Assembly (NCBI RefSeq): GCF_056712565.1
Contig: NZ_CM160072.1
Length of the DNA stretch: 64,000 bases
Direction: 5' to 3' (one strand)
The translations under genes were made by a program, and so were the position numbers. Below are positions 43,198 to 47,734 of this stretch, piece by piece (position 1 is the first letter of the stretch; each line of letters begins with the position of its first letter). Under the pieces are notes generated by a model. The model was not told where the DNA came from. It searched no databases and was given only the letters and a program-made list of their open reading frames with translations.

Positions 43198-43839
43198 TTA
43201 CAGCTTAGCGCCTTCTACAGCTTCACGCGCCAGCTTAGTAATGCGGTCGTAATCGCCCGCTTCCAGCGCATCTGCCGGAACCAGCCAGGAACCACCGATG
43301 CACAGCACGCTTTTCAGCGCCAGGTAGTCACGGTAGTTAGCCGGAGAAATACCACCTGTCGGGCAGAAACGGACCTGAGAGAACGGACCCGCGATCGCCT
43401 GCAGGGCTTTCACACCGCCGTTAGCTTCAGCCGGGAAGAATTTGAACTCTTTCAAACCGTAGTCCATACCCAGCATCAGTTCGGAAACAGTGCTGATCCC
43501 CGGAATCAGAGGAATAGTCCCTTCGGTAGCAGCTTTCAGCAGCGGCTCGGTCAGACCCGGGCTAATTGCAAACTGTGCACCTGCTTCAGTGACTTCTGCC
43601 AGCTGCTGTGGATTCAGCACCGTACCGGCACCCACAATCGCTTCAGGCACTTCTTTGGCGATAGCACGGATAGCGTCAACTGCGCACTCGGTACGCAGAG
43701 TCACTTCCAGAACGCGCACCCCACCAGCAACCAACGCTTTTGCCATCGGCACCGCGTGTTCCAGTTTTTTTACCACGATAACCGGTACAACCGGGCCGGT
43801 GGTCAGGATTGATTCTGCACTTGTTTTCCAGTTTTTCAT
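43198..43839 (-). CDS. eda: KHG/KDPG aldolase
   Basis: 213-aa [43 protein letters not shown]... Confidence 0.9.
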
Positions 43840-43875: not shown

Positions 43876-45687
43876 TTAAAAAGTGATACAGGTTGCGCCC
43901 TGTTCGGCACCGGACAGTTTTTCACGCAAGGCGCTGAATAATTCACGTCCTGTTCCCACGCGTGACGCGCTCAGGTCAGGAATGTGCGGTTCGCGAGCAG
44001 CCAGTTCCGCTTCGTCTACCAGCAGCGTCAGTTCGCCTGTCTGTCCATTCACACGAATGATGTCCCCGTCGCGCACTTTTGCCAGCAGCCCGCCATCGTA
44101 GGCCTCTGGTGTTACGTGGATAGCTGACGGCACTTTACCTGAAGCGCCGGAGAGTCGTCCATCGGTAACTAACGCAATTTTGAAACACCGGTCCAATAAT
44201 ACACCAAGTGGCGGCATGAGTTTATGTAATTCTGGCATTCCGTTCGCTTTTGGCCCCTGATGACGGACAACAACGACACAATCGCGGTCCAGTAAACCCG
44301 CTTCAAAGGCCGGCATAACGTCATGCTGGCTTTCAAAAACAACCGCTGGCGCTTCAATCACCTGGTTCTCTACCGGCACGGCAGAGGTTTTCATAACCGC
44401 TCGCCCCAGGTTACCGCTTAACACTTTTGTCCCACCATGATGAGAGAAAGGTTGTTCGAAGGACGCGATCACATTGTTGTCGAGTGATTTTTCTGCCCCT
44501 TCCCGCCAGTCCAGTTCACCATTATTCAGCCATGGTTCAAGGGTATAACGAGACAGACCAAAACCTGCCACCGTATTGACATCTTCATGCAGCAGGCCTG
44601 CTTTGAGCAGTTCACGTACCAGAACCGGTACGCCACCTGCCGCCTGGAAGTGGTTAATATCGGCCGGACCGTTCGGGTAGAGACGTGCCATCAGCGGTAC
44701 AACATCAGAAAGGTCAGAGAAGTCATCCCAGTTAATCTGAATACCGGCTGCGCGCGCCATCGCCACCAGGTGCATGGTGTGGTTAGTGGAACCACCGGTC
44801 GCCAGCAGTGCAACGATACCGTTCACCACCACTTTCTCATCGATCATCTTACCGATCGGCATCCATTCATTACCATTACCGGTCATGCGCGTAACCTGGC
44901 GCGCAGCTGCAGCGGTCAAAGCATCGCGCAGCGGAGAATCCGGATGAACAAAAGAAGAGCCTGGCAACTGCATCCCCATAAACTCCACCACCATCTGGTT
45001 GGTGTTGGCAGTACCGTAGAAAGTACATGTTCCCGGCGCATGATAAGACGCGGCTTCTGACTCCAGTAATGCCATGCGGTCCACTTTACCTTCGGCATAA
45101 AGCTGGCGAATACGCACTTTTTCTTTATTTGGCAAACCGCTTGCCATCGGTCCAGACGGCACAAACACCGCAGGCAAATGACCAAACGACAGGGCTGCCA
45201 TGGTCAGACCTGGGACAATCTTGTCGCACACACCGAGAAACAGAGCACCATCAAACATGTTATGGGACAGCCCCACCGCCGCAGACATCGCAATCACTTC
45301 GCGGCTTAACAGCGACAATTCCATTCCATCCTGCCCCTGGGTGACACCATCACACATCGCCGGAACACCGCCCGCAACCTGACCAACCGCATTCGCTTCA
45401 TGCAGGGCTTTACGAATGATTTCCGGATAGTGTTCATAAGGCTGGTGAGCGGAGAGCATGTCGTTATAGGAGGTGATGATGGCGATATTGTTACGCAACA
45501 TGCTTTTCAAAGAGGCTTTGTCTTCTGGCTGGCAGGCAGCGAAACCGTGTGCCAGGTTACCGCATGCCAACTGCGAACGATGAACGGTCGAAGTTTTCGC
45601 TTGTTCTATCCGGGCGAGGTAAGCAGAGCGAGTCTCGCGCGAACGTTCAATGATTCGATTTGTTACGCGTAACAATTGTGGATTCAT
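43876..45687 (-). CDS. edd: Phosphogluconate dehydratase (Entner-Doudoroff)
   Basis: ORF-track frame 43876..45753; recognised start [25 protein letters not shown] (45687); IlvD/Edd family. Confidence 0.9.
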
Positions 45688-45808
45688 AAAGGCTCCTGAA
45701 ATTGAGTTGTCAGAGCAGGATGATTCACAACACGTTTCATTCAGAGGATTCATGACTGAAACGCCTGTAACCGGAGCTCATAGGGCAAAAACGTTTCAGT
45801 CAGTGTAA

Positions 45809-45921: not shown

Positions 45922-47397
45922 TTACTCAAACTCATTCCAGGAACGACCGTCACGGGTAATCATCGCCACCGAGGCAACGGGGCCCCAGGTTCCGGCCTGA
46001 TACGGTTTCGGCGCATCATTGTCCATCGCCCACGCCTCAGTAATGGAGTCTACCCATTTCCAGGCTTCTTCCACTTCATCACGACGTACAAACAGTGCCT
46101 GAATACCACGCATGGTTTCCAGCAGCAGACGTTCATAGGCATCTGCCAGATGCGTTTGATTAAAGGTTTCTGAATAGCTCAGATCCAGCTTGGTGATTTG
46201 CAGGTTATGTTTGTGGTCAAGGCCAGGAACTTTATTCAGTACCTGGATATCCACGCCTTCATCAGGTTGCAGACGGATAGTCAGTTTATTCTGCGGCAGA
46301 TCCTGCCACGACTCTTTAAACAGATTCAGTTCAGGTGTTTTGAAATAGACCACGACTTCAGAACATTTGGTCGGCAGACGTTTACCAGTACGCAGGTAGA
46401 ATGGCACACCGGCCCAGCGCCAGTTATCAATGTCGATGCGGATCGCCACGAAGGTTTCTGTATTGCTGCTCTTGTTCGCGCCCTCTTCTTCCAGATAGCC
46501 CGGCACTTTTTTGCCCTGAGCGAAGCCCGCAGTATATTGCCCGCGTACAGTTTTTTCGCGCACGTTGGAGCGGTCGATGCGGCGCAGAGACTTCAGTACT
46601 TTCACTTTTTCATCGCGGATGCTGTCTGCGCTCAGGTCAGACGGCGGAGACATCGCAATCATGCAAAGAATTTGCAGCAGGTGGTTCTGGATCATGTCGC
46701 GCATCTGACCGGCTTTATCAAAATAGCCCCAGCGCCCTTCGATCCCCACTTCTTCTGCCACGGTAATCTCAACATGATCAATGGTGCGATTGTCCCAGTT
46801 GTTCACAAACAGAGAGTTAGCAAAACGCAGCGCCAACAGGTTCAGCACTGTTTCTTTACCAAGATAGTGGTCGATACGGTAAACCTGGCACTCCTCGAAG
46901 TATTCGCCAACCTGATCGTTGATTTCCTGCGAGGTCGCCAGCGACGTCCCCAGCGGTTTCTCCATGACTACGCGTGCCGGTTTAGCATTCAGTTTTGCCT
47001 CACCAAGCCCTTTGCAAATTGCGCCAAAAGTGCTGGGCGGCATGGCAAAGTAGTTAATGGTGATACGATTTTTTTGATCCAGCATCGCGCCGAGACGGCT
47101 GAATGCAGCAGTGTCATTGACATCAAGATTACAAAAATCCAGACGTGCACTCAGGGTGTCCCATAAACCTTCATCAATGGTTTCTTTCATGAAAGTTTCG
47201 AGCGCCTCGCGGACAACTTTGGTATAAGCCGCTTTATCCCAGTCAGCACGCCCTACGCCGATAATCCGGGTGTCCGGGTTGAGCTGACCGGCTTTTTCCA
47301 GTTGATACAGGGAAGGCAGCAATTTACGACGCGCAAGGTCGCCTTTCGCGCCGAAAATGACCAGGTCACAGGCCTGGGCTGTTTGCGTTACCGCCAT
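45922..47397 (-). CDS. zwf: Glucose-6-phosphate 1-dehydrogenase
   Basis: 491-aa [35 protein letters not shown]...; active-site motif RIDHYLGKE. Confidence 0.9.
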
Positions 47398-47445
47398 GTC
47401 ATTCTCCTTAAGTTAACTAACCCGGTACTTAAGCCAGGGTATACT

Positions 47446-47460
47446 TGTAATTTTCTTACG
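47446..47460. promoter_or_regulatory. Candidate HexR operator (TGTAAT-N-TTACG half-palindrome) in zwf promoter
   Basis: TGTAATTTTCTTACG about 50 nt upstream of zwf start; resembles TGTAAT...ATTACA-type HexR motifs, which I recall only approximately. Confidence 0.3.
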
Positions 47461-47734
47461 GTGCACTGTACTGCTTTTACGAGCTTGCGAAAACTGTAAA
47501 CGCTTATCCACCCGTGCGATTACGGTAAAAGCGCGCAAAGTGCGGCAAAACTGATAAAAAAATCATCGTTTTCCATTGGGTAAAAATCTGACACTGATCA
47601 TGTTATGAAAAAAAATAACAACTTTTTTATCTGCTTTTGTCATTAACACAGCACACAGGCGTAATATCTGACAAAACTGCATTTCGATTTCTTTCAGAGC
47701 GGAAATCGTCATTACCCGTGAGTCTCTTTACATC

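Follow-up and report, generated by a model that had tools for sequence, protein, structure and literature searches.

The window analysed here is a stretch of 64,000 nucleotides of Escherichia coli DNA (contig NZ_CM160072.1 of assembly GCF_056712565.1), in which the 901 bp around the site described below are 100% identical to E. coli ATCC 11775. Positions 47398-47734 are exactly the 337-bp gap between the start codons of two divergent genes, zwf and hexR, and this pair is flanked by edd-eda on one side and by pykA on the other. The zwf-hexR locus was found, with these two genes so annotated, in 5425 of 5426 complete E. coli genomes, and the same intergenic region occupies 1936315-1936651 in K-12 coordinates. 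The genes of the neighbourhood were assigned as follows:

43198-43839, minus strand: eda, from open reading frames and family models
43876-45753, minus strand: edd, from open reading frames and family models
45922-47397, minus strand: zwf, glucose-6-phosphate dehydrogenase, the putatively regulated gene (TIGR00871, 682 bits; zwf in RefSeq)
47735-48604, plus strand: hexR (yebK), RpiR-family regulator (NF008451, 'transcriptional regulator HexR', 566 bits against a cutoff of 296)
from 48732, plus strand: pykA, pyruvate kinase, from open reading frames and family models

The first-pass annotation of this DNA had named the same five genes and placed zwf and hexR back to back; the family models bear out each identity and, with the open reading frames, the divergent layout. 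The genome encodes the cognate HexR protein, which combines an N-terminal HTH_6 domain (PF01418, residues 1-76) with a C-terminal sugar-phosphate-binding SIS domain (PF01380, residues 125-252) and carries the K-12 RefSeq name 'DNA-binding transcriptional repressor YebK'.

According to PMC9638938, zwf has a class I promoter whose soxbox precedes the -35 element by 7 bp. Proceeding from this box towards zwf, the control region features:

47501-47520, minus strand: SoxS/MarA/Rob box (soxbox), ATCGCACGGGTGGATAAGCG, with its GCAC 'A site', 7 bp upstream of the -35 hexamer
47488-47493, minus strand: putative -35 hexamer of zwf, a weak TTTTCG, following the soxbox after 7 bp
47467-47481, minus strand: possible weak second HexR-like box, CGTAAAAGCAGTACA, three mismatches, speculative
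47465-47470, minus strand: zwf -10 hexamer TACAGT, assigned by promoter geometry, with a 17-bp spacer from the putative -35
47458-47459, minus strand: putative zwf transcription start, placed by geometry 6-7 nt past the -10
47446-47460, minus strand: predicted HexR operator, TGTAATTTTCTTACG on the plus strand
47404-47409, minus strand: zwf ribosome-binding site AAGGAG

With a start at 47458-47459, the operator covers approximately -1 to +14 of zwf and would overlap the putative first transcribed base. The zwf leader was reportedly put at 62 nt by Rowley and Wolf in 1991, and the start placed here agrees with that length. The predicted operator lies in the promoter of a central-carbon gene, at a position compatible with regulation.

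The first-pass annotation had pointed to a string at 47446-47460 in this promoter, and the plus strand indeed reads TGTAATTTTCTTACG there. In the direction of zwf the 15-mer reads CGTAAGAAAATTACA and begins 63 nt upstream of the ATG. It is an imperfect palindrome of the form TGTAAT-N3-ATTACA with two mismatches, 10 of the 12 specified positions being matched: both mismatches fall in the half nearer the promoter, CGTAAG, at its positions 1 and 6; the distal ATTACA half has none, and the core GTAA...ATTACA is intact. The 15-mer is identical in the four E. coli sequences compared (K-12 MG1655, the window, GPEC620 and SCPM). Taken as a bare pattern, this match has no significance. Within the 64 kb of the window, TGTAATNNNATTACA with up to two mismatches was found four times where 2.56 would be expected, and an equal or better count was obtained from 22 of 100 shuffled sequences; scaled to the 337-bp intergenic region, the same rate corresponds to approximately 0.013 expected matches. 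Since the pattern is not enriched, conservation rather than pattern count was taken as the decisive evidence.

A species-representative genome collection was scanned once with HexR, which yielded 80 Enterobacterales loci with 83-99% protein identity, 79 of which are informative in that they include the region upstream of hexR. Only Enterobacterales appeared among the best 120 matches of a separate protein search, and the comparison with Vibrio and Shewanella made below rests on the literature. In every one of the 79 informative loci zwf is divergent from hexR, with 330-534 bp between the two genes, and a recognisable 15-mer is present at the orthologous position in each, covering the Enterobacteriaceae, Pectobacteriaceae, Yersiniaceae and Erwiniaceae. 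In 46 of the 79 it is the perfect palindrome TGTAATAAAATTACA, with Citrobacter, Salmonella, Kosakonia, Enterobacter and Pectobacterium among the genera concerned, and the remainder are variants with one or two mismatches. Conversely, every perfect palindrome in 452 kb of related loci (46 of 46) sits at the orthologous position.

When 70 distinct sequences were aligned without gaps on the site, its 15 positions averaged 1.83 of 2 bits in the resulting profile, compared with approximately 0.5 bits for the flanks up- and downstream and 1.24 bits for the -10 region; no other part of the zwf control region is as strongly conserved. Nine operator positions are invariant and four are nearly so, position 3 being T or A in a few lineages. 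Position 1 (T/C) and position 6 (T/G/C) vary freely and are the least informative, at approximately 1.0-1.2 bits. The CGTAAG half-site of E. coli also occurs in Kluyvera, Yokenella, Superficieibacter and others, while TGTAAG and CGTAAT are found in further genera. As positions 1 and 6 toggle repeatedly across genera, the E. coli version falls within the normal variation of the site.

The operator keeps a fixed distance from the promoter. In E. coli it lies 4 nt downstream of the -10 hexamer. Of 78 loci, 66 have the same 4-nt gap and the others one of 5 or 3 nt, whereas the distance of the operator from the zwf ATG varies between 39 nt, in Pectobacterium and Serratia, and 215 nt (above 200 nt in Kluyvera). 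This combination of fixed -10 spacing and variable ATG distance ties the site to transcription initiation. The -10 itself is kept as TACAGT or TACATT in all aligned Enterobacterales and the first T of the -35 is nearly invariant, while the ribosome-binding site is GAGGAG or AAGGAG in all aligned loci without exception. Outside Escherichia, the soxbox is kept only in Citrobacter and in some Enterobacter and Kosakonia. In three Kluyvera loci (L027, L028 and L031), the stretch of zwf leader that links the operator to the ribosome-binding site contains an insertion of 30-150 bp, with the spacing between operator and -10 unchanged.

The first-pass annotation had suggested a weight matrix as the check on its motif. 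A position weight matrix was built from 77 non-Escherichia orthologous sites, and a second version from 45 distinct sequences of the site with its flanks. With either version, 47446-47460 is the best-scoring 15-mer of the 64-kb window on both strands; its score of 25.1 of a possible 28.7 bits, approximately 6 SD above the mean, gauges the conservation of this site rather than HexR specificity independently, because the matrix was built on orthologous sites. If zwf is the sole target in Enterobacteriales, as the literature says, this matrix should be close to what a curated profile would be. In the same scan of the E. coli window, edd, eda and pykA proved to have no HexR-like box in front of them, so the predicted HexR regulon in this neighbourhood is limited to zwf, possibly with hexR itself. 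The earlier description of a compact regulatory neighbourhood is right as to the gene layout but an overstatement as to common HexR control.

Two further matches in the window were considered in their own right. TGTAATAAAAATACA at 57316-57330 is the only match to the HexR consensus with a single mismatch and has the second-best matrix score, 21.5 bits. In the ruvA-yobI-yebB region, where it is found between ruvA and yebB, it shares bases with the coding sequence of the small gene yobI; K-12 has CGTAATAAAAATATA there, with three mismatches, and since the match is not conserved it was rejected as probably due to chance. TGTGATATTATAACA at 53700-53714, which fits a relaxed HexR pattern, is situated in the short gap of the divergent open reading frames 52734-53792 (minus strand) and 53745-54500 (plus strand). 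From their position in E. coli we take these to be znuA and znuC, and the sequence presumably represents the Zur box of znuA/znuCB rather than a HexR site.

In relatives, the HexR palindrome recurs beside hexR at positions that are not orthologous to the zwf site:

Serratia, upstream of pykA: TGTAGTAAAATTACA
Rahnella, upstream of pykA: TGTATTACAATTACA
Pectobacterium, upstream of pykA: a weaker version
Rahnella, second box in the intergenic region: TGTCATAAAATTACA

The pykA boxes of Serratia and Rahnella have one mismatch and lie 75-90 nt upstream of pykA, in the gap between hexR and pykA. Within the loci, the pykA boxes are found at approximately 3474 in L074, L076 and L078 and at approximately 2178-3538 in L070, L075, L079 and L080. 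The box is absent in the Enterobacteriaceae examined for it (E. coli, Citrobacter, Salmonella and Klebsiella), a distribution that fits the published shrinking of the HexR regulon to zwf in Enterobacteriales (PMC5343134). Closer to the zwf operator, the possible second box CGTAAAAGCAGTACA overlaps the promoter spacer and the -10, with its centre 21 bp from that of the main operator. It recurs as CGTAAA[AC][GA]CAGTACA in Enterobacteriaceae and loses its GTAA part in Pectobacterium, Serratia and Rahnella; as far as the alignment goes, its apparent conservation is inseparable from that of the promoter.

The HexR regulog in RegPrecise is reportedly the work of Leyn et al. (in J Biol Chem in 2011), and the link to zwf in E. 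coli is said to have been predicted since that year. The Enterobacteriales HexR regulog of RegPrecise has the same regulator, the same target, zwf, and the same motif type, TGTAAT-N3-ATTACA, as described here, with no difference of substance, and 47446-47460 is almost certainly the E. coli zwf site of that regulog. Comparative genomics describes HexR as a local regulator of zwf in Enterobacteriales and in E. coli (Leyn et al. 2016, PMC5343134; PMC3223726). The 15-mer is best described, from its sequence and distribution, as a deeply conserved predicted HexR site that was already known from such predictions and that has partial biochemical support. This support comes from an electrophoretic mobility shift assay in which purified E. 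coli YebK shifted a 'yebK promoter' fragment and 3 mM KDPG reversed the shift (Parisutham and Lee 2015, PMC4488073). The protein in that study is the same as that encoded at 47735-48604, and it bound DNA from this intergenic region reversibly with KDPG; the study differs from ours in that the fragment was seen as the yebK promoter, in terms of autoregulation, the site was not mapped, zwf was not tested and the targets were called unknown.

In Vibrio parahaemolyticus, the HexR motif is TGTAATTAAATTACA, and deleting hexR derepresses the promoters of zwf and pgi (bioRxiv 10.1101/2024.07.16.603657). HexR of Shewanella oneidensis shares this consensus with that of V. parahaemolyticus, and zwf belongs to the regulon in both; these regulons are global, extending to glycolysis, fermentation, pgi, glgX and more, whereas in the E. 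coli DNA studied here there is the zwf site only. The HexR operator had been put forward in the first-pass annotation as a weak motif call, and it gains in standing here, because the 15-mer matches the published consensus TGTAATTAAATTACA with two mismatches and most relatives have a perfect palindrome at the orthologous position. Pseudomonas HexR recognises a different operator palindrome, TTGT-N7/8-ACAA, and counts edd, glk, gap-1 and eda among its targets. In Pseudomonas putida and P. fluorescens, HexR is a KDPG-responsive RpiR/SIS repressor that is divergent from zwf and controls zwf and the Entner-Doudoroff genes (cf. Daddaoua et al. 2009). The KDPG response and a hexR gene divergent from zwf are common to Pseudomonas and E. 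coli, while the operator palindrome and the regulon differ.

A ChIP-exo experiment with YebK in glucose M9 reported 16 sites, none of them at zwf/yebK (PMC8464067 supplement, Dataset S4). At least six of these 16 peaks (uxaB, uxaC, rplC, ygjD, mepS and insJK/cspA) are common to unrelated factors in the same dataset, namely YdhB, YqhC, YedW, YbcM and YiaU. This overlap suggests that the shared peaks are background loci rather than HexR targets and, therefore, that the experiment may have failed to capture specific YebK binding. In the literature searched, neither data on E. coli zwf expression in a hexR deletion nor an experiment showing directly that zwf is repressed from this site by E. coli HexR was found. 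We infer that E. coli HexR binds at this palindrome and that the binding represses zwf.

Very probably, in our judgement, HexR binds the palindrome over the zwf start and occludes RNA polymerase, and is released when KDPG occupies its SIS domain. According to this model, HexR made from the divergent neighbour gene would bind CGTAAG-AAA-ATTACA, presumably as a dimer. Given an operator at approximately -1 to +14, HexR on the DNA should stand in the way of RNA polymerase, and a protein seated on a palindrome that starts 4 nt past the -10 could act at the level of polymerase binding or of promoter clearance. When KDPG builds up, for example during growth on gluconate or hexuronates, it would bind the SIS domain, upon which HexR would leave the DNA and zwf would be derepressed. 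The SoxS/MarA/Rob box upstream of the -35 would act as a separate, independent activating input. Through such a site, KDPG levels would bear on the step with which both the oxidative pentose-phosphate and the Entner-Doudoroff routes begin, a connection that could be useful in metabolic engineering of NADPH supply and in KDPG biosensors. What the present analysis adds is detail rather than a new concept: the placement of the operator at about -1 to +14, its spacing tied to the -10, and the variability of the promoter-proximal half-site.

It is rather unlikely, though worth stating, that the E. coli operator works only in a weakened form, with T1C and T6G in the half-site over the start leaving marginal repression, or that it needs a cooperative second box. 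A weakened operator would explain why the ChIP-exo experiment missed the site. The second-box variant would have CGTAAAAGCAGTACA at 47467-47481, two helical turns upstream and over the -10, bound cooperatively with the main operator by a HexR tetramer.

Another reading, which we consider improbable, is that the operator is ancestral and works in the relatives with a perfect palindrome, but is vestigial or much weakened in E. coli, where T1C and T6G would have cut control of zwf to little or none. The four E. coli sequences do carry two promoter-proximal mismatches, compared with one in E. albertii and none in Citrobacter and Salmonella, and the YebK ChIP-exo data would be in keeping with a lost site. 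However, the CGTAAG half-site is shared with Kluyvera, Yokenella and Superficieibacter, the core is intact and YebK binds DNA of this region in vitro (PMC4488073). As the two substituted positions are also the least constrained ones, a vestigial operator is possible, though not favoured over an operator that is bound and represses zwf.

The palindrome might instead act as RNA: the zwf mRNA would then begin with a hairpin that could, for example, protect it from decay. The element is transcribed (about +1 to +14) and self-complementary, as this would demand, yet among 45 distinct sequences no pair has changed on both sides, 29 alignment cells break the pairing on one side, and the observed scores are no better than those of shuffled controls. 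One-sided substitutions without compensation are as expected for a protein-binding site. Moreover, it is the primary sequence that is conserved, it equals the HexR consensus, and the same box stands upstream of pykA in Yersiniaceae, in regions that are not orthologous. The lack of compensatory changes rules out an RNA hairpin as the reason for the conservation, and we give an RNA role of the palindrome a very low probability. A Rfam scan of 47300-47850 returned only a sub-threshold match to a miRNA model, which was regarded as noise.

That the 15-mer is a chance match, or the site of another transcription factor, is the least probable reading, close to negligible: the two-mismatch pattern is not enriched in the window and the better-looking one-mismatch match at 57316-57330 proved to be chance, but the extreme and specific conservation at the orthologous position, always adjoining hexR, excludes chance, and the motif agrees with that of HexR in Vibrio and Shewanella.

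Several other elements of the region were observed alongside the operator. Just downstream of it, the zwf leader contains a short inverted repeat, CCCTGGC-TTAAGT-ACCGGG (47421-47439, minus strand), which most Enterobacteriaceae retain as CCTGGC...ACCAGG; a few show double changes, such as GGCCGGT/ACCGGCC in Pluralibacter. RNAalifold support for this repeat is weak (-1.2 kcal/mol), and it is absent in Pectobacterium and Serratia, where the leaders extend only 24-25 nt past the operator.

On the hexR side, a block of approximately 40 bp at 47583-47623, situated approximately 110-150 nt upstream of the hexR ATG, is conserved in all four Enterobacterales families and is the best-conserved intergenic part apart from the HexR operator. 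It reads AAAATCTGACACTGATCATGTTATGAAAAAAAATAACAAC in E. coli and ...GATCATGTAATGAAAAAAAACAACA in most relatives, and contains a -35-like nnGACA, a GATC site and an A8 tract, together with a lone TGTAAT half-site outside E. coli. The block occurs once per E. coli genome. It may be the hexR promoter or a site for some other regulator. A 53-bp conserved block near hexR was considered as a repeated element and rejected, being single-copy in E. coli genomes. Likewise, a plus-strand hexR promoter overlapping the operator (TATACT, 47440-47445) was rejected, as it is not conserved outside Escherichia.

Enterobacterales also share an inverted repeat, CGATTTC-N10-GAAATCG, at 47685-47708, which precedes the hexR start codon by 27-50 nt. 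This repeat is not HexR-like, and because it is conserved mostly in sequence, with little covariation, a protein-binding palindrome would be a better fit than an RNA hairpin. Finally, one complete E. coli genome, that of strain J6 (NZ_CP195973.1), has an IS1A inserted inside the zwf-hexR intergenic region (positions 1694-2600 of locus L084). The insertion is approximately 193 bp from the zwf side, beside the conserved block near hexR, and parts hexR from the zwf operator and promoter.
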